Program-made: the position numbers and the translations under genes | The notes under the pieces: generated by a model | Told to the model about the DNA's origin: nothing | What the model saw: only the letters and a program-made list of their open reading frames with translations | Databases searched by the model: none | Assembly: GCA_020697515.1 (NCBI GenBank) | Contig: JAIXNB010000052.1 | Coordinates: forward strand, 1 to 6,590 | Source of the DNA: Nanobdellota archaeon | Lineage (GTDB): Archaea; Nanobdellota; Nanobdellia; Nanobdellales; Nanobdellaceae | Length of the DNA stretch: 6,590 nucleotides | Direction of reading: 5' to 3' | Part shown: piece by piece, positions 1 through 6,590 of the stretch | How positions within the stretch are numbered: the first letter of the stretch is position 1 | Layout of the letters: each line of letters opens with the position of its first letter

Positions 1-1
1 T

Positions 2-217
2 AATATAGACGTAGCGCGTTTCAGTACCTCATTAAATAATATAATAACAGCTCTCGAGGGTGTGAAAAATGAGATAGATAAGATAAAGAAGATGGAAATA
101 CAAGAGGATAATATAGCAAATGCATTAAATACAATTTTGAATGAAGAAAGGGAAATAATAAAAAAGATAGAGAAGGAATTAGAAAGGATTGTAAATGTCT
201 ATCACGCACACCCCTAA
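2..217 (+). CDS. 3' end of a coiled-coil protein (partial; start lies upstream of the window)
   Basis: Not in the supplied ORF track because it has no start in the window. Frame 2 is open from the window edge for 71 codons and ends at TAA 215-217. The translation NIDVARFSTSLNNIITALEGVKNEIDKIKKMEIQEDNIANALNTILNEEREIIKKIEKELERIVNVYHAHP is K/E/I/N-rich and heptad-like, matching the other proteins here. The 66-aa minus ORF 21..221 (L/S/F/P-rich) looks like its antisense shadow. Confidence 0.55.
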   Translation, partial: NIDVARFSTSLNNIITALEGVKNEIDKIKKMEIQEDNIANALNTILNEEREIIKKIEKELERIVNVYHAHP

Positions 218-1374
218 CCAATTTTATTTTTTATTCCCAAACTTTCAGCATAATCATCCGGATCTAAAGTAATTATATATCCTTCAGATGTTTCTTCTAA
301 TCTATGTTTGGATCTACCAACCCTTTGTACTAATCTAGAAACTTGTCTAGGAGATGTATATTGTATTACCACGTCGACATGCCCTATATCTATCCCCAAC
401 TCTAAAGAGGATGTTGCAATTATTGCTTTAAGCTTTCCTTCCTTTAACAATTTCTCATTCCTCTCCCTAACTTCCCTAGACAAAGAACTATGATGTATTT
501 CTACAGGGAGATCGGGATATAATTTTTTAAATCTAGAAGTTAACAGCTCCGCCATTTCTCTAGTATTAACAAAAACTATTGCACTTCTAACAGAATTTAA
601 TATTTCTTTCATTTTTCTTAAAGACCAAACAATCTTTGGATGCCATCCTAATTGCTTAGCAAGTTTTTCATCATCTTTATTTATATCATGAGGATAAATA
701 ACCTCAATTTTATACTTTTTCTTTTCATACCATTTGATTACACTATACTCCCTATTGCCAAAAATGAATTTAGCGGCTAAATCCACATCACCAATTGTAG
801 CAGAAAGCGCTATTCTTTGAAACTCTCCAGCAAAGTTAACAAGCCTTTCCAGGCCTAAAGACAGTTGCACACCTCGCTTATCATCCAACAATTCATGCAG
901 TTCGTCTATTATAACAAATCTTACAGCTTTTAGATGTTCTTTTATTCTTTTTCCCATAAACAGAACTTGGAGGGTCTCTGGAGTAGTTATCAGAAACTCT
1001 GGTGGTATTTTACTTTGTTTGATCCTTTCAGATTTAGGAGTATCCCCATGCCTTACTGCGATTGATATATTTAAATTTTCACACCACCAATATAATCTAC
1101 TCAAAAGATCTCTATTTAGTGCCCTTAGGGGGGTGATATAAAGAGTAAGAATTCCTTTAGAGTCTGTATTTTCCTTTATTTCAAGTATTCTATTAAGTAC
1201 TGGAATCACTGCGCTTTCTGTTTTTCCAGCCCCTGTAGGAGCTACAATCAAAGTATTTTTACCTTTTACAATCTCTGGAATAGTTAATCTTTGTAATTCA
1301 TTAAAACTCCTAAATTTAGAATAGAATAATTTCAGAATTTCTGTTCGTAACAACATACACATTTCTTTATTCAT
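214..1374 (-). CDS. lhr: Lhr-type (COG1201-like) DEXH-box ATP-dependent helicase, RecA1+RecA2 core only (386 aa)
   Basis: Superfamily 2 (SF2) helicase motifs in order: I APTGAGKT, Ia TPLRALNRD, Ib TTPE, II DELH, III SAT, V ATSSLELGIDIG, VI QRVGRSKH. HHSSLSREVR and ATSSLELGID are Lhr-typical strings. The ORF ends at TAG 214-216, about 30 aa after motif VI, so the winged-helix domain and domain 4 of Lhr-core are absent. Confidence 0.85.
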   Translation of the reverse strand: MNKEMCMLLRTEILKLFYSKFRSFNELQRLTIPEIVKGKNTLIVAPTGAGKTESAVIPVLNRILEIKENTDSKGILTLYITPLRALNRDLLSRLYWWCENLNISIAVRHGDTPKSERIKQSKIPPEFLITTPETLQVLFMGKRIKEHLKAVRFVIIDELHELLDDKRGVQLSLGLERLVNFAGEFQRIALSATIGDVDLAAKFIFGNREYSVIKWYEKKKYKIEVIYPHDINKDDEKLAKQLGWHPKIVWSLRKMKEILNSVRSAIVFVNTREMAELLTSRFKKLYPDLPVEIHHSSLSREVRERNEKLLKEGKLKAIIATSSLELGIDIGHVDVVIQYTSPRQVSRLVQRVGRSKHRLEETSEGYIITLDPDDYAESLGIKNKIG

Positions 1375-1398
1375 TATAAAAAATCTTTTGATTCGGTG

Positions 1399-1405
1399 TT
1401 AAAAA
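1399..1405. promoter_or_regulatory. Candidate shared TATA-like A/T box (TTAAAAA / TTTTTAA)
   Basis: Centre at about 1402. That is about 28 nt from the helicase ATG (1374, minus strand) and about 28 nt from the C box start of the candidate sRNA (1430, plus strand). This spacing fits an archaeal TATA box for leaderless or 5'-end-defined transcripts in both directions. Confidence 0.35.
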
Positions 1406-1429
1406 CCTTGAGAGTCAAATAATCCTTAT

Positions 1430-1481
1430 ATGATGAACGTTTCCTGGACTGGAATTAATGATGAATGATCGGCGTCGCTGA
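1430..1481 (+). ncRNA. Candidate archaeal C/D box sRNA (2'-O-methylation guide)
   Basis: C box ATGATGA 1430-1436; 12-nt spacer ACGTTTCCTGGA 1437-1448; degenerate D' CTGG 1449-1452; loop AATTA 1453-1457; C' ATGATGA 1458-1464; 13-nt spacer ATGATCGGCGTCG 1465-1477; D box CTGA 1478-1481. Total 52 nt, the canonical archaeal architecture. It lies in a 304-nt non-coding gap with locally raised GC. Weak points: D' is not CTGA, one spacer is 13 nt rather than 12, and the terminal stem is only about 2 bp. Confidence 0.5.
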
Positions 1482-1678
1482 TACGCTAGAGCTAATTAAA
1501 TTTAGTGAAGATCCTGTCTTCCTCTGCCCTAAAGGGAAGGAGTTCCAAATAGAGTGGAGAAATTTATAGCTATATTCTTTTCGTTCGATCCAGGATAAGT
1601 TTCTGATCTATCAATCATAATCTAGTATATATTAACTTTATAACAAATCTATATTCCGTTATTTCTTAAAATTCCAAA

Positions 1679-2332
1679 TTAAAGAAGTAGTGTCCCATCT
1701 AATGCTAATACATTATAGGAATCTATATCTTTTGTTAATGGTCCATGGAATTTGCCAACCTCCCAGAAACCAACAAGGTTTGAAAATGCTGGTAGGATAA
1801 GAAAATCGTACTCTCCAGTTTCCCCATATACAAATACCTTCTCATAGAAACTCTCTCCAATAGAAGATTTTATATTTATAGCAAAATGATGATGTCCTAA
1901 TATATATAACTTTCCTTTAAGTCTCGGGCGGGTGTGTCCATGAAGAAAAACTACTTTACCTACTCTAAACTCTCTAACTATTATTATATTTGGATTATCA
2001 TTTAGTTTCTCTAAAGATCCATCATGATTTCCCTTTGTAATTACTATTTTTTTAAATATGTTAGAGAGTTTCTGCAATAGCATGGGGACCTCCTTTAACT
2101 CAATATAGCTAACTCTTGGTACATTATGCTTAAAATCTCCAGTGATTATCAATTTACTAACATTATATCTCGCTTTTAGTTGCTTTATTCTGCTATATAT
2201 GCTCTGTGTCTGCGCTGGGATATTAATCCCTTTTTGTAGAAGCTCTTTTTCTATTCCAATATGCAAATCTGAAATAACTAGATATTGTTTTTTAAATATG
2301 ATTGCTTCAGTATTTGTAAAATCTATAAACAA
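1679..2332 (-). CDS. Calcineurin-like metallophosphoesterase, COG1407 / ligase-associated PdeM-like (217 aa)
   Basis: Full metallophosphoesterase (MPE) motif set: DLHIG (DxH), GDFKH (GD), GNHD (GNH[DE]), LHGH, GHHH. The size, about 220 aa, is typical of the small MPE genes linked to Lhr helicases. There is no in-frame ATG before the DxH motif. The only plausible start is TTG 2330-2332, directly abutting the upstream TAG stop. Confidence 0.85.
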   Translation of the reverse strand: MFIDFTNTEAIIFKKQYLVISDLHIGIEKELLQKGINIPAQTQSIYSRIKQLKARYNVSKLIITGDFKHNVPRVSYIELKEVPMLLQKLSNIFKKIVITKGNHDGSLEKLNDNPNIIIVREFRVGKVVFLHGHTRPRLKGKLYILGHHHFAINIKSSIGESFYEKVFVYGETGEYDFLILPAFSNLVGFWEVGKFHGPLTKDIDSYNVLALDGTLLL

Positions 2333-2692
2333 CTAAGAAGATCTGAAAAATTCAAAAAGAAACTTACGGATTTGGTTTATATCTTTGGCAGATTTTATTT
2401 TTTCTTGTAATTCCTTTAACTGCTCAAAGTCTTCTACTAAGAATACAGCATCTCCTATAATTTGTCCAGGTAACCCTTTTCTAAAAACAACTCTAACATT
2501 TCCATTACTCCCATGAGGTGTTGCAACTCTACCAATAAAGAATTTTTTCTTACCAGGGCTAACCCACAAAACCTTTTTACCTATCAGTTTGCTAGCTTCC
2601 CCTCGAGAACTTATATTTTCGAAATGAACAATGATTTGATTATTCCTAATAATGTGTCTACCTCTTCTATAGTTAACTACAACACCAATCAT
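2333..2692 (-). CDS. rpl35ae: Ribosomal protein L35Ae (eL33) with a 33-aa C-terminal extension
   Basis: VVNYRRG..., EASKLIGKKVLW, HGSNGNVRVVFRKGLPGQIIGD closely follow the archaeal L35Ae pattern (YRR, EA.KLIG, HG..G.VRA.F.KGLPGQ.LGD). Archaeal homologues, as I recall them, end about 9 aa after GLPGQ. This ORF continues for another 33 aa (E87-S119). Confidence 0.9.
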   Translation of the reverse strand: MIGVVVNYRRGRHIIRNNQIIVHFENISSRGEASKLIGKKVLWVSPGKKKFFIGRVATPHGSNGNVRVVFRKGLPGQIIGDAVFLVEDFEQLKELQEKIKSAKDINQIRKFLFEFFRSS

Positions 2693-2710
2693 AATTTTGT
2701 TGTTTAGAAA

Positions 2711-2722
2711 TAAATTTAAAAA
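2711..2722 (-). promoter_or_regulatory. Candidate TATA box for rpl35ae (TTTTTAAATTTA on minus strand)
   Basis: Lies at -19 to -30 relative to the ATG at 2692, consistent with a leaderless transcript. Confidence 0.4.
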
Positions 2723-3014
2723 TCAAATGTTATTATTGGATCTTTTGATGTAGATGTTTTCCTAGATGCCCTTTTTAAATTACTAAACTACTGTTCATTC
2801 CGGTTTTTAGCTTTTGTATTATCCTCTCTATTATTCTTTGTTAGGGTTTACAACTGAAAGCCTCGTCCTTTAGAGCAGGTATAAAAAAGATCTAAGTATC
2901 TTAGTGAGTTAGGGGTAACAATTAGAGTATTTCTGACAAATCCGATGTTGTTAACCGAGCCGATAAAATATTTAGGTCAGAGAAGAGGTCATCTAAAAAT
3001 AAATGTATAATAAG

Positions 3015-4745
3015 CTATTTAATTATTTGGAAATCTCCGAATATTCTCTCTAATGCATTTATTAACTTTTTATCAATAATATTTTTACCTTTATGATTAA
3101 TCTCTTTTAAAATTATTTCCTCAAATTTATCTCTGGGGAAACTATCTAACTTTTCACCAAGGTAATTATATTTATCTATTTTCTCCCCAATTACAAATAT
3201 ATAATCCTCCGTAGGATACACATCGTATTTCTTACCAGCGCTTACTATCTCTATGCTGTATTTAGAAACTAACTCAGACTTTTTACCTTCAACTAAGTAT
3301 CTTAAGAACCGATTCATGTTAATTATATTATTTTTCAGTCTATTCACATCTACTACATCCAATTTTTGGTCTCTATACAGTTTTATATCATTTATTAGTT
3401 TGTTCAATAACTGCAATTCTGTAGGAAACTTTTTTCTGAATATATCTTCTATAGAGCTTCCATAAAGGTCCTCTAGCTGTGCTTTAAGACTATAAAATTC
3501 TTGGATATAATATGATATTTCTTCTTTTTCCTTCTCAGCATCAATCTGTGTTTTTAATCTTTTCATCCTGCTAATAAATTCCTTTGCTATATTTAACCAC
3601 TCCTCAACTTCTTTTCCAGTTACTGTTTCCTTTCTTTTATGCTCTATATCCTTTCTAATTTTCACGATTTCTTCCAATTTTTTAGCATACTTTTCTTCTA
3701 GCAGTTTTTTATTTTCAACAAATATTTTCTTTAGCAATACTGAGGTTTCTTTTGGATCAGGAGGAAGCAATCCATAATCCATTAATGCAGCTTGTGCTGC
3801 AGTTACCATAGATAGGGCGACATCCTCCATTAATATTGTTCTTAATTTATTTTCTGCTTCCCTTATAGTATTCTCGGCCATATTCAAGTATATTTCAGCA
3901 GCTTCTCTCGACGGTTTTATAATACCTTTGATTAAAAGTTGTTTCCATGCTATAAATGTCCCTCTATCATATAAAGCTAATCCGTCTCTCAGGAAAGTGA
4001 TTATTACTGGATTTGCTTCAGACATTGCCAGCCAAAACTCCGTTAGTGTATAAACCTGAGGATGCAATATTTTTTTAGACTGGGTTATCATCATTGCTTT
4101 CATGGCTTCTTGAGTTACTATAGAGTATAATTTTTGCTTAAGTTCTACAAAAGTATGTAATTTTACATCAGTGTCATCTATAACAACGTATACATCCACA
4201 TCCGAGCTCTCAGTAGCCTTACCTTTTATATAAGATCCTGCTAATACATAAGCAACTACATATTTTTGGAATATTTCTAGTACTAAACCTTTATGTACTA
4301 GAGCCAACTTGAATATTTCATATAAACCTTTATCATGGTGTACCTTCGCTTTTAAAAAGATATCGAATAACTCAAACTTAGAGTCCATCGATATTTGTTT
4401 TATGTCATCTAAAAGCAAAATATGTAACCATATATCTCGATTTTTTTGTTTTATGATTTCGAGCAACTCTTGATAAGCTGTTGCTTTTAGTTTTAATTTA
4501 TCCTGAGGTTTCTCAAGATCGAAATCAGATAAGACAATTACATAATGTCGATAATTCTCTAATTTTTCCTTAAATTGTTGCTTTAGTTCCTCTAGATTGA
4601 TTTCTGGTAAAGTCGAATATGTTAATAATGCATCTACGACTGATGCAAAGTCTTTATCGAGCTTAGGTGGTTGGAACTCTATGATGAATTGTACTTTGTT
4701 TTTAATTTTACTATTTAAAACCTCTTCCACAAAAGTTTCCCCCAT
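3015..4745 (-). CDS. 576-aa multidomain protein: unknown N-terminal region + Pol-beta-type minimal NTase + HEPN-like helical domain (Rx4H) + coiled coil + unknown C-terminal domain
   Basis: Long uninterrupted ORF with composition like its neighbours. NTase signature GSYIKGKATESSDVD (aa 170-184). Helical domain at aa ~278-398 with RKDIEH (aa 364-369). No motif recognised in aa 1-140 or aa 400-576. Confidence 0.8.
   Translation of the reverse strand: MGETFVEEVLNSKIKNKVQFIIEFQPPKLDKDFASVVDALLTYSTLPEINLEELKQQFKEKLENYRHYVIVLSDFDLEKPQDKLKLKATAYQELLEIIKQKNRDIWLHILLLDDIKQISMDSKFELFDIFLKAKVHHDKGLYEIFKLALVHKGLVLEIFQKYVVAYVLAGSYIKGKATESSDVDVYVVIDDTDVKLHTFVELKQKLYSIVTQEAMKAMMITQSKKILHPQVYTLTEFWLAMSEANPVIITFLRDGLALYDRGTFIAWKQLLIKGIIKPSREAAEIYLNMAENTIREAENKLRTILMEDVALSMVTAAQAALMDYGLLPPDPKETSVLLKKIFVENKKLLEEKYAKKLEEIVKIRKDIEHKRKETVTGKEVEEWLNIAKEFISRMKRLKTQIDAEKEKEEISYYIQEFYSLKAQLEDLYGSSIEDIFRKKFPTELQLLNKLINDIKLYRDQKLDVVDVNRLKNNIINMNRFLRYLVEGKKSELVSKYSIEIVSAGKKYDVYPTEDYIFVIGEKIDKYNYLGEKLDSFPRDKFEEIILKEINHKGKNIIDKKLINALERIFGDFQIIK
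3552..3914 (-). other. HEPN-like four-helix domain of the 576-aa protein, aa ~278-398
   Basis: All-helical segments: REAAEIYLNMAENTIREAENKL / DVALSMVTAAQAALMDYG / LLKKIFVENKKLLEEKYAKKLEEIVKIRKDIEH / GKEVEEWLNIAKEFISRMKRL. R364-x4-H369 (nt 3639-3656, verified) matches the HEPN Rx4-6H signature. Placement directly after an NTase domain is the usual NTase/HEPN pairing. Confidence 0.5.
3921..4313 (-). other. Minimal nucleotidyltransferase (Pol-beta superfamily) domain of the 576-aa protein, aa ~145-275
   Basis: hG[GS]-x10-D-x-D motif: G170 S171 ... D182 V D184 (nt 4194-4238, verified by back-translation). It is followed by VYVVIDD and a later acidic strand (TLTEF). Domain boundaries are approximate. 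Confidence 0.7.
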
Positions 4746-4762
4746 TTATTTGTTTGAAACAA

Positions 4763-4775
4763 TAATATTTATATT
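4763..4775 (-). promoter_or_regulatory. Possible internal TATA-like box (AATATAAATATTA on minus strand) for the 576-aa gene
   Basis: Lies at -18 to -30 relative to the ATG at 4745 and overlaps the HIT stop codon (4769-4771). No Shine-Dalgarno-like purine run is visible in the 23-nt gap. The gene may therefore have its own leaderless promoter, or be co-transcribed with HIT. Confidence 0.3.
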
Positions 4776-5335
4776 TTCCTAAGAAACCATATGAGCATTT
4801 TGCTATAGTCCTTCTCTTTATCTTTATGATTCCTGTTTGTTTTTTTATCTTTAGAAAAGACTTCTGTTTTTGTAGGGTCCTTATTAATATGAATATTCTC
4901 TGTATAATTCCTATTAGTATTATATTTATTTAGGGCTGATACTATTGCGTTTTGGATTTGCTGAAACACCTGCGGATTTAATTGCTTTCTTGACCATTCA
5001 AAGTGTATACTATCTTCTTTATATCTTGGAATAATATGGAGTACTATGTGCGGGGTTTTCTGCCCTGCATATTTTCCAGATGCTAAATACAGATTAATAC
5101 CGTCAGCATTCAAAGTACTTGTAAGGACTGAAGATATATATTTTGCTAGGACAAACATTTTGCCAATAATGTTATCCGGAATATCCTCAAATCTTGAAAA
5201 ATGATTTTTTGGGAAAACCAATATATGTCCAGGGTTTGCTGGGTAGAGGTCTAAAACAGCAATAATATCATTATCTTCAAATATTATAAAAGAGGCTAAT
5301 TGTTTGCTAGCAATTTTGCAAAATACGCACTCCAT
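4769..5335 (-). CDS. HIT (histidine triad) superfamily protein, Hint-like, with atypical triad and a Lys-rich C-terminal tail (188 aa)
   Basis: N-terminal CVFCKI (CxxC zinc motif of Hint-type HITs), DLYPANPGHILVFPK (compare D..P.ap.H.LviPK), and GQKTPHIVLHIIPR at the position of GQ.V.H.H.H.IPR. The core is about 135 aa, followed by a roughly 50-aa N/K/D-rich tail. Confidence 0.85.
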   Translation of the reverse strand: MECVFCKIASKQLASFIIFEDNDIIAVLDLYPANPGHILVFPKNHFSRFEDIPDNIIGKMFVLAKYISSVLTSTLNADGINLYLASGKYAGQKTPHIVLHIIPRYKEDSIHFEWSRKQLNPQVFQQIQNAIVSALNKYNTNRNYTENIHINKDPTKTEVFSKDKKTNRNHKDKEKDYSKMLIWFLRKI

Positions 5336-5370
5336 AATATTTATAATAATGATTTATTAATAAAACAAGT
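5336..5370. promoter_or_regulatory. 35-bp divergent promoter region with two back-to-back TATA-like boxes
   Basis: TTTATAATAA (5340-5349) lies at -22 to -31 from the plus-strand ATG at 5371. TTTTATTAATAAA on the minus strand (5353-5365) lies at -18 to -30 from the minus-strand ATG at 5335. The gap leaves no room for 5' UTRs. Confidence 0.45.
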
Positions 5371-6306
5371 ATGTTAGATCTCATTGTTCTAATCGCAATT
5401 AGCGTGTTATTGATGATTGTAAGTTCAGATATTCTAGTAAAATCCATAATAGAATTTTCAAAAAAGATAGATTTTCCCCCTTATTTAATAACCTTTTTTT
5501 CTATATCTTTGGGATCCTCTCTGCCAGAAATATTAAATGCTATAATATTCTCCGTGAACAGACACCCTCAAATAGGATTATTTACAATCCTAAATAATTT
5601 GGTTATAGATTTTACATTGGTATTTGGATTAAGCATTCTCCTTTCAAGATCTCTTAAAGATCTTTATTTAAACAAACAGTATGTAATCGCAATGATTCTC
5701 GTTTATATATTATTTTTATTCTCTGTTTTAGATGGATATTTATCTATGACTGAAGGTATGATGTTATTTATATCTTATGGGATAACATTCACTTCTTTCA
5801 TAATAAAAAATATAGATAATTTGAAAGTTAAGAAATCCCTAGATATACCATTGAAGGATGGGTTGAAGTATTCCTTTATGATCGCAGCATCCATTTTTGT
5901 TCTGATAGTTAATGCAAACTTAATATATGTACTATCTATAATACTTATGAAACATTTTAGGATACCCTATTTCATAATTGGATATATATTGGGGTTTCTA
6001 ACAGTTATGCCGGAGTTTCTAGTAACACTAATATCTTATTTCTCCTTAAAAAGGGAAGATATTGCAATATTTAATCTATTTGGATCATTTATTACAGACT
6101 TAACTTTCGGCATTGGTATCTCTGCGGCGATTATTCCATTTTCCATAAAGATGCATATATTTTTATTGTATATTACCATGTTAGTGCTTTATATATCTAT
6201 GGTGTTATCAGATCTTGTTATAATTGGTAAAAAAATACCAAAAGAAGTAGGATTGTTATTAATCGGAGGCTACCTGATATACTCTTTTATATATCTATCT
6301 TGGTGA
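5371..6306 (+). CDS. CaCA-family cation/Ca2+ exchanger (YrbG / NCX_Mj-like), about 10 transmembrane (TM) segments, 311 aa
   Basis: Hydrophobic throughout, with a central polar loop (aa ~145-165) splitting two halves. Alpha-1 repeat GSSLPE (aa 48-53, nt 5512-5529, verified). Alpha-2 repeat LTVMPE (aa 210-215). GSFITD in the second half corresponds to GS.I.D of alpha-2. Size and layout match archaeal NCX-type exchangers. Confidence 0.7.
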   Translation: MLDLIVLIAISVLLMIVSSDILVKSIIEFSKKIDFPPYLITFFSISLGSSLPEILNAIIFSVNRHPQIGLFTILNNLVIDFTLVFGLSILLSRSLKDLYLNKQYVIAMILVYILFLFSVLDGYLSMTEGMMLFISYGITFTSFIIKNIDNLKVKKSLDIPLKDGLKYSFMIAASIFVLIVNANLIYVLSIILMKHFRIPYFIIGYILGFLTVMPEFLVTLISYFSLKREDIAIFNLFGSFITDLTFGIGISAAIIPFSIKMHIFLLYITMLVLYISMVLSDLVIIGKKIPKEVGLLLIGGYLIYSFIYLSW

Positions 6307-6530
6307 AAATAAGTTTTAGTCTAAACCTAATAATATAACTAATTATTATTGTATTATATTAGAGTGTCAGAATGTAGGGAGTTATATTTAGAACGCTCCC
6401 TGATGAAGTCTATATATTATGGAATGAGAGACCCCTTCATTATTGGGTATTTAGGATTAGCAGGAACAAAAACGTATAACGTGTTCTTTTGCATCATTTA
6501 ATTACTTCTGTAGTGTTTTGTTAGATAGCA

Positions 6531-6590
6531 ATGAAGCTCCCCTCAAAAACTCTTTACTCCGAAAGCCAGACAATAAAGTCAGAGGATGGA
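6531..6590 (+). CDS. Possible 5' end of a protein-coding gene running off the window (MKLPSKTLYSESQTIKSEDG...)
   Basis: ATG 6531 is preceded by an in-frame TAG at 6522-6524, and 20 codons remain open to the window edge. An A/T box CATTTAATTA lies at -27 to -36. A second frame is also open here, so this is weak. Confidence 0.25.
   Translation, partial: MKLPSKTLYSESQTIKSEDG

Follow-up and report, generated by a model that had tools for sequence, protein, structure and literature searches.

Histidine triad (HIT) superfamily proteins are usually treated as nucleotide hydrolases or transferases; they are obligate dimers, and their domains recognize nucleoside monophosphate (NMP) conjugates. HIT domains that lack only the nucleophilic His are known from the laboratory point mutants Fhit H96N and Hint1 H112N (PDB 2FHI, 5IPC, 5KM6), whose crystals, by their PDB titles, hold intact substrate or an analogue and which serve as a model for binding without cleavage. 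Here we analyze P0001, a long HIT protein with Val at this position, encoded on the minus strand of a 6,590-nucleotide stretch (the window) from a Nanobdellota archaeon (GenBank assembly GCA_020697515.1, contig JAIXNB010000052.1, positions 1 to 6,590). The source assembly comprises 469 kb, is 76% complete, and has a GC content of 32%; among named organisms, its closest relatives are Candidatus Woesearchaeota / Nanoarchaeia. Our reading, to which we assign a rough probability of 0.6, is that P0001 is a conserved non-hydrolytic, probably nucleotide-binding HIT adaptor of a DPANN clade. Compared to the Fhit and Hint1 mutants, the loss of the nucleophile in P0001 is natural and ancient, and further phosphate-contacting residues are lost with it. 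The gene and its HIT-domain features are as follows.

4769..5335 including the stop, minus strand: long HIT gene P0001, 188 residues, ATG at 5335, protein starting M-E-C-V-F-C-K-I; a nucleophile-less zinc-type HIT domain plus tail
5318..5329, minus strand: zinc motif C3-V-F-C6, predicted to bind zinc together with H45 (5201-5203) and H96 (5048-5050)
5081..5083, minus strand: A85, at the site of the conserved Asn of canonical HITs (Hint1 Asn99), from the paralogue alignment
5036..5050, minus strand: degenerate triad H96-I-V98-L-H100, with V98 at the nucleophilic His site (Hint1 His112)

P0001 is a member of the HIT superfamily by both profile and fold. The Pfam HIT profile (PF01230) matches residues 11-106 with 77.2 bits (cut-off 21.5), and a phmmer search against PDB sequences returned 46 HIT chains at E<1e-3, the best with E-values of 3e-20 to 1e-16. 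An AlphaFold2 (AF2) model built with 21 orthologues as input had a mean predicted local distance difference test score (pLDDT) of 80.7, with core blocks at 87-96; run against Zn-bound 3O0M, it gave template-modelling (TM) scores of 0.84-0.89 and a Foldseek probability of 1.00, and the fold of 2EO4 was also matched. A preliminary description of the window, made from the sequence and proposing such a structural comparison, had placed Val at the nucleophile position, and the PF01230 profile, the phmmer and Hint1 alignments, and the structure superposition agree on this register. The minus-strand codons were as it had reported: positions 5050-5036 read cac ata gta ctc cat, encoding H96-I-V98-L-H100, and are followed by I-I-P-R. 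V98 falls opposite the middle His in phmmer alignments to 2EO4, 3O0M, 3IMI, and 1Y23 (for example, phivlhiip in P0001 against fhlhvhiip in a PDB HIT), and no His of P0001 lands on the nucleophile position in the Pfam HIT alignment. Residues 17-116 of human Hint1 align by phmmer to residues 3-102 of P0001 with a constant offset of 14, which equates V98 with His112, H96 with His110, H100 with His114, A85 with Asn99, D29 with Asp43, and H37 with His51 of Hint1. The CVFC motif, the GHILVFPK strand, and the Lys/Asn/Asp-rich tail that the same description listed are each present in P0001. Converting the Val98 codon GTA to a His codon (CAY) takes three base changes, and a single sequencing error therefore cannot account for V98; with the identical protein called on four contigs and the trait found in all orthologues, a sequencing error or a point mutation is ruled out.

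Judged by its residues, P0001 departs from the catalytic HIT pattern H-x-H-x-[HQ], with V98 at the middle His in all alignments, and from the Hint-branch pattern of a conserved phosphate-contacting Asn and a conserved third His. We consider it very likely that P0001 does not perform covalent HIT catalysis. Its best sequence matches lie in the zinc-binding Hint branch (Sulfolobus tokodaii ST2152 2EO4, M. smegmatis 3O0M, B. subtilis Hit 1Y23, and Candida albicans HINT 6IQ1), with which it shares the fold, a predicted zinc site composed of CxxC, the His of the PK.H motif, and the first His of the triad, and the IPR ending. Compared to this branch, P0001 has Val for the middle His and Ala for the conserved Asn, extends past the domain with a long helix, then a charged, disordered linker, and finally a conserved peptide at the C-terminus, and comes from a genome that encodes a canonical enzyme separately, in an unlinked second HIT gene on contig C55 (L001:1471-1872; 133 residues, triad H-V-H-F-H).

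In the structure of Candida albicans HINT, zinc is bound by Cys7, Cys10, His49, and His104, and the first His of the triad is a zinc ligand rather than a catalytic residue (PMC6354057). P0001 carries a predicted zinc site of the CxxC subgroup in which C3, C6, H45, and H96 match these ligands exactly, and all four residues are present without exception in three alignments of long HITs (A2, A3, A4). The preliminary description was right that H96 and H100 are both retained; according to the Candida structure and the alignments, however, H96 is retained as a structural zinc ligand and not as a catalytic remnant, and the retained H-x3-H is therefore not a partial active site.

To define which positions changed, we compared 26 canonical with 41 long HITs out of the same genomes. 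Both groups conserve C3, C6, I8, Y/F19-E-D, L28, I30, P32, G36, P42-K43, H45, Q92, H96, and P103, whereas N85, H98, H100, F27, and E12 are conserved in canonical HITs only and S15, G79, and D108 in long HITs only. The middle position is always His in the canonical paralogues and never His in the 41 long ones. The Asn85 site is N in 81% of canonical paralogues and S, N, Y, or A in the long group (A in P0001); the third His, present in P0001, is His in just 34% of the long group. Ile18, Phe19, Ile22, Phe41, and Ile44 form the nucleoside pocket of Hint1, in which the ribose hydroxyls are held by Asp43 (bioRxiv 10.1101/2024.07.15.603568); with the +14 offset, these residues map to V4, F5, I8, V27, L30, and D29, respectively, of P0001. 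Because the pocket residues are largely kept (F5, I8, and L28-D29-L30), nucleoside binding by P0001 is plausible, and the pocket may yet accommodate a nucleotide or nucleotidylated end, as the substrate-trapping Hint1 H112N and Fhit H96N mutants do. By analogy with these mutants, it is plausible that a nucleotide or nucleotidylated ligand is bound by P0001 and left uncleaved.

Loss of the nucleophile is a family-wide trait and not a one-off. When genomes of the source's own archaeal class (Nanoarchaeia/Woesearchaeota-type DPANN) were sampled, 121 out of 121 matched the long-HIT profile; all 41 of the 41 related genomes hold a long HIT, and most pair at least one long HIT with one short canonical HIT. 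Every long orthologue inspected has V, I, L, M, S, T, A, F, or Y at the middle position. A profile was searched exhaustively against 1.84 billion cluster representatives, of which 907 matched at E<1e-30, and the nucleophile column in the best 150 of the 907, taken together with earlier matches, contains L (39), M (36), I (22), S (22), V (19), and H (25). The ESM Atlas clusters around P0001 are 100% archaeal (Woesearchaeota/Nanobdellota) and are labelled merely 'HIT family protein'; a single-protein scan recovered mostly canonical HITs of many phyla plus one nucleophile-less Woesearchaeota copy.

The same alignments bear on the possibility that P0001 is still an enzyme of a non-canonical kind, in which attack by water or phosphate would be activated by H100 or H37 without a covalent His-NMP intermediate. 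P0001 itself has H96, H100, and H37, the residues of its nucleoside pocket are preserved along with the GQ-motif Gln, and strong purifying selection is compatible with such an activity. Close orthologues under equally strong selection, however, replace H37 with S, T, or Q and H100 with Q, N, S, E, or Y, and genus g2 is more degenerate, with Ser or Thr for His37 and Gln, Asn, or Ser for the third His. The phosphate-contacting Asn is lost too, and in the site no substitute polar residue is conserved; S15, G79, and D108 are all that long HITs alone conserve. We regard a non-canonical enzyme as unlikely. The preliminary description had offered two interpretations, a non-hydrolytic pseudoenzyme or a different catalytic arrangement, and had asked whether orthologues share the H-x3-H pattern; they share or exceed it, His37 and the third His being lost in many, which argues against the second interpretation and for a non-hydrolytic protein.

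Orthologues of the most degenerate form are under strong purifying selection. Among 36 orthologue pairs from genus g2, dN/dS ranged from 0.08 to 0.28 with a median near 0.12; these values include the tail, which is also constrained. The reading frame is intact in all orthologues. With these values, the intact frames, and the long form present in all 121 genomes of the class, a decaying pseudogene is ruled out, and the earlier judgement that the gene is not decayed is borne out by the dN/dS values and by the invariant zinc ligands.

The order of events was examined in a FastTree tree of 233 HIT domains from which the triad columns had been removed and which was rooted on canonical paralogues. 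All tailed HITs group together in a single clade with support 88 and 190 rows. The branches at its base (P0071, P0126, P0076, P0165, P0086, P0125, and L070) retain H-x-H-x-H and already have long tails ending in R-[IL]-P; full-triad tailed members with this ending include L070:424-1131 and L174:2226-2783. Within it, 180 rows make up an inner clade (support 92) that includes P0001 and is almost entirely nucleophile-less, and the tree requires a minimum of 8 state changes. The simplest reading of this sequence tree is that the tail arose first and that the nucleophile was lost early, essentially once. The basal tailed members with H-x-H-x-H are natural catalytic counterparts for comparison.

Given that most of these genomes carry two kinds of HIT protein, P0001 might instead be a regulatory heterodimer partner that tethers or modulates the canonical HIT enzyme, as yeast Dcs2 does with Dcs1. 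Nearly all of the 41 related genomes have one canonical short HIT beside the long form, the core residues listed above are common to both paralogue groups, and dimerization, which in HIT homodimers runs through the central beta-sheet, is obligate in the superfamily. The canonical gene is unlinked in the source genome, however, and where pseudo-HITs are paired they are adjacent to or fused with each other and not with the canonical copy, which leaves a heterodimeric partner improbable. Fused two-domain HIT proteins of ~290-400 residues (P0019-P0025, P0028, P0030, and others) were also seen; domain 1 keeps CxxC and reads H-x-[LMV]-x-H, domain 2 is without CxxC and more degenerate, and the proteins end in [DN]-Y-x-x-x-x-L-x-R-I-P. 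From their sequences these proteins look like covalent pseudo-dimers and are consistent with a dimeric function. Pfam detected no fused partner domains in the longer relatives.

The region beyond the HIT core of P0001 comprises three segments.

4889..4975, minus strand: long C-terminal helix after the HIT core, residues 121-149 (DSSP on the AF2 model, pLDDT 76-91)
4811..4888, minus strand: disordered Lys/Asn/Asp-rich linker, residues 150-175 (pLDDT 40-60), unalignable and length-variable in orthologues
4772..4810, minus strand: end motif D-Y-S-K-M-L-I-W-F-L-R-K-I, residues 176-188, conserved after variable linkers

In the AF2 model, the helix at residues 121-149 is followed by disorder at residues 150-177 and a short terminal helix. 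The preliminary description had suggested that the tail could bind nucleic acid. Among 112 single-domain members, tails measure 43.5 residues at the median and are 45% charged; net charges extend from -70 to +10, with half of the tails net acidic and P0001 at +6. Nucleic-acid binding by the tail is thus no family property, and the conserved part is the short end motif. In the GTDB family of the source genome (f1; other GTDB families of the sample carry other f-numbers), this motif is [DE]-[YF]-x-x-[MLYV]-x-x-W-F-x-[KR]-[KR]-I, one form of an ending that family-wide reads W-[FL]-x-[KR]-[KR]-I(-P) or R-[IV]-P-x-Y-W. Many families end in R-[IV]-P-x-Y-W; elsewhere the last residues are [KR]-[IML]-P or W-L-P-x-R-I-P, and one subgroup ends in L-D-D-I-x-K-L-F-G-G. 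By sequence, the f1 motif reads as a variant of W-L-P-K-R-I-P, and the tail resembles a flexible tether that carries a short linear motif for docking.

Several specific roles for the end motif were considered. A docking motif common to several clients was rejected, the DNA pattern for R-I-P-x-Y-W-stop being confined to the HIT gene in 5 genomes; a W-F-x-K-R-I-like end occurs once among the open reading frames (ORFs) of the source genome. Folding of the tail back onto its own HIT domain is unsupported, with pLDDT of 41-55 for the end motif in two AF2 monomer runs. The Y-S-K-M-L-I-W-F of P0001 fits the spacing of the PIP box, Q-x-x-[ILM]-x-x-[FYW]-[FYWL], that PCNA clients carry at the C-terminus behind a flexible linker, and Fen1-like and PolB-like ORFs of the source genome end in comparable motifs; the R-I-P(-x-Y-W) with which orthologues from other families finish does not resemble a PIP box. 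Mimicry of the ribosomal stalk by P0001 is ruled out as well: the stalk proteins aP0 and aP1 (C17:7148-8143, C45:7317-7637) end in L-E-G-L-G-[ST]-L-F-G-F, unlike P0001, and this ending is resembled only by the L-D-D-I-x-K-L-F-G-G subgroup of nucleophile-less HITs in other lineages.

Candidate partners were sought in the gene neighbourhood, of which three window genes matter most.

3015..4745, minus strand: nucleotidyltransferase-HEPN (NTase-HEPN) gene, 576 residues, immediately downstream of the HIT gene (Polbeta/NTP_transf_2/HEPN)
1679..2332, minus strand: MPE-type metallophosphoesterase gene (Pfam Metallophos), the most widely conserved long-HIT neighbour
214..1374, minus strand: Lhr-type superfamily 2 (SF2) helicase core, 386 residues, the MPE partner gene (Pfam DEAD, Helicase_C)

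Within f1 the order is fixed: Lhr-type helicase (386 residues), MPE, L35Ae, NTase-HEPN (576 residues), long HIT, and a divergent Na/Ca exchanger. The NTase-HEPN and HIT genes lie on the same strand, 23 nt apart in the window, and the preliminary description had treated them as a pair. P0001 could then be a non-hydrolytic reader of a nucleotidylated product of the NTase-HEPN protein, a role in keeping with the recognition of NMP conjugates by HIT domains. The adjacency is kept in all f1 loci examined but was not seen outside f1, where MPE or, in family f18, aEF1-beta adjoins the long HIT gene instead. In genome G028, homologues of NTase-HEPN stand beside L35Ae, ~6 kb from the HIT gene, and on the tree the loss of the nucleophile long predates the f1 arrangement. 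The pairing holds within f1, and a reader of the NTase-HEPN product is, in our estimate, very unlikely. The G028 homologues are two shorter proteins (286 and 364 residues) encoded directly upstream of L35Ae (L028, G028:C42, 12197-14506), an arrangement which suggests that NTase-HEPN/L35Ae is the older linkage and came to separate HIT from MPE by insertion in f1.

Association with MPE is broader. Among the 85 non-f1 genomes that have an MPE match, 32 place the long HIT gene <1.6 kb from MPE, in most cases head to head, and this proximity spans 13 GTDB families (f5, f7, f11, f12, f14, f15, f17, f19, f21, f22, f25, f30, and f33); within f1 the distance is ~2-3 kb. All 20 of the 20 checked long HITs within 1 kb of MPE are nucleophile-less, and the G079 copy, 1.5 kb from MPE, retains H-x-H-x-H and has a tail ending in R-L-P. 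The sole PDB match of the window MPE is P. putida Nuclease MPE (6NVO, E 1.8e-7). Two-gene clusters of an Lhr core and MPE are known in bacteria and archaea, including DPANN (PMC7826289, PMC8301817). The Lhr-type helicase has 381-387 residues and two RecA domains in all f1 orthologues, the short form thus being a fixed family-level trait and not an assembly artefact; in other families the helicase homologue adjoining MPE/HIT has 854-921 residues, with WHD_Lhr and DEAD_assoc. Because the long HIT gene adjoins this pair in many families, we propose the Lhr helicase / MPE nuclease pair of nucleic-acid repair, tentatively, as the putative partner pathway; it is the best-supported candidate context for the long HIT.

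A functional precedent, by analogy, for a long HIT acting with MPE is offered by eukaryotic Drn1, in which the CwfJ domain, a HIT-like CxxC/His module, non-enzymatically enhances the metallophosphoesterase Dbr1 (PMC4105757). CwfJ_C_1 of Drn1/CWF19L1 (PF04677) belongs to the HIT clan and has a conserved CxxC and His residues, and the long HIT gene likewise neighbours a metallophosphoesterase gene; PF04677 gives weak matches in members of the long-HIT family, for which Pfam HIT scores far higher. Compared to Drn1, however, the long HIT is without CwfJ_C_2 and is not fused to MPE, and the window MPE is of the Lhr-associated single-stranded DNA nuclease type, not Dbr1. A second system for comparison is aprataxin, a HIT-type 5'-AMP DNA deadenylase and thus a DNA-repair HIT domain that recognizes an adenylylated nucleic-acid end; it has a full catalytic H-x-H-x-H triad and a C-terminal zinc finger. 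No specific sequence relationship between P0001 and aprataxin was found by phmmer against PDB sequences.

In 19 of the 25 genera of family f18, the long HIT gene comes after aEF1-beta at a distance of less than 1 kb and in the same orientation; the two genes also stand in this order in L041/L042. The f18-type proteins (L066 and L175-L181 among them) are very divergent, stand in an apparent operon with aEF1-beta, and have the triad H-x-[ILV]-x-N/E, an N-terminal helical extension of ~50 residues, and a tail ending in W-L-P-x-R-I-P. This arrangement would suit a role in translation, with the tail peptide docking to a translation factor or to the ribosome, as would the likeness of the L-D-D-I-x-K-L-F-G-G ending to the stalk end L-E-G-L-G-S-L-F-G-F and the RNA-modification and translation genes that neighbour the long HIT in L043. 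In the source genome, however, aEF1-beta is on another contig (C4), the end motif of P0001 is unlike the stalk tail, the f18 proteins fall outside the main clade of the tree, and the MPE association covers more families; a translation role therefore seems to us quite improbable. A Peptidase_A24 (prepilin peptidase) gene lies convergent with and immediately downstream of the long HIT at L041:4611-5477 and L043:7484-8299, in contexts that otherwise differ.

We return to P0001 as a non-hydrolytic adaptor. It would be a stable, probably dimeric HIT-fold binding module that does not hydrolyze nucleotide conjugates, with a flexible charged linker of ~40 residues presenting the conserved C-terminal peptide, most likely for docking to another protein. 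A more specific and rather unlikely version would make the long HIT a dedicated non-catalytic reader of nucleotidylated (e.g. 5'-adenylylated) nucleic-acid ends or of a nucleotide signal, acting as a third Lhr-MPE component tethered by the R-I-P-type peptide; it would then be an archaeal counterpart, and possibly an evolutionary relative, of the pairing of a metallophosphoesterase with a HIT-like domain that eukaryotic Drn1/CWF19 proteins show in fused form.

Several observations weigh against the adaptor reading or its proposed context. The loss of activity is deduced from residue identity alone, and two pocket positions vary, Hint1 Phe41 being Val in P0001 and D29 being N, E, or S in some orthologues. 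Of the 121 genomes with a long HIT, 24 have no MPE match, 15 of these being at least 90% complete, and an MPE partnership is thus not obligatory. The f18 genera place the gene after aEF1-beta, and pseudo-HITs in other lineages are adjacent or fused pairs. Conserved neighbourhoods may also partly be inherited gene order, as in L041 and L043, which share the Peptidase_A24 neighbour, and the history rests on a quick FastTree tree of ~130 columns.

Two further features of the window lie beside the genes discussed. The MPE and helicase genes are separated by a gap of 304 nt, in which the plus strand at 1427-1482 gives sub-threshold Rfam matches to archaeal C/D-box small RNAs (sRNAs), namely sR5 (23.2 bits, E 0.037) and sR28 (20.1 bits); they fit an earlier note of a C/D sRNA and are under the gathering score. 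The L35Ae stop (2333-2335) abuts the TTG start of the MPE gene (2330-2332), and the L35Ae ORF has a C-terminal helical extension of ~33 residues past its Pfam match, which ends near residue 84.

The HIT fold and family are already known; the nucleophile-less tailed DPANN clade is undescribed in the literature searched, where no nucleophile-less or tailed DPANN HIT clade was found. New here are the zinc-ligand account of the retained His, the particular sites at which the long HIT diverges from the canonical paralogue of the same genome, the phylogeny in which the tail comes first and the loss second, the family-wide C-terminal motif, and the MPE and aEF1-beta neighbourhoods. The annotation 'HIT family protein' is an error that propagates over hundreds of genomes. 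The P0001 family provides a natural 'substrate-trap' HIT for study and a candidate for an accessory factor of the Lhr-MPE repair pair, itself poorly understood, or else of aEF1-beta. DPANN genomes of ~0.5-1 Mb universally keep a nucleophile-less HIT, strongly selected, beside a canonical copy, and such retention in reduced genomes indicates that a non-enzymatic HIT function must be important.

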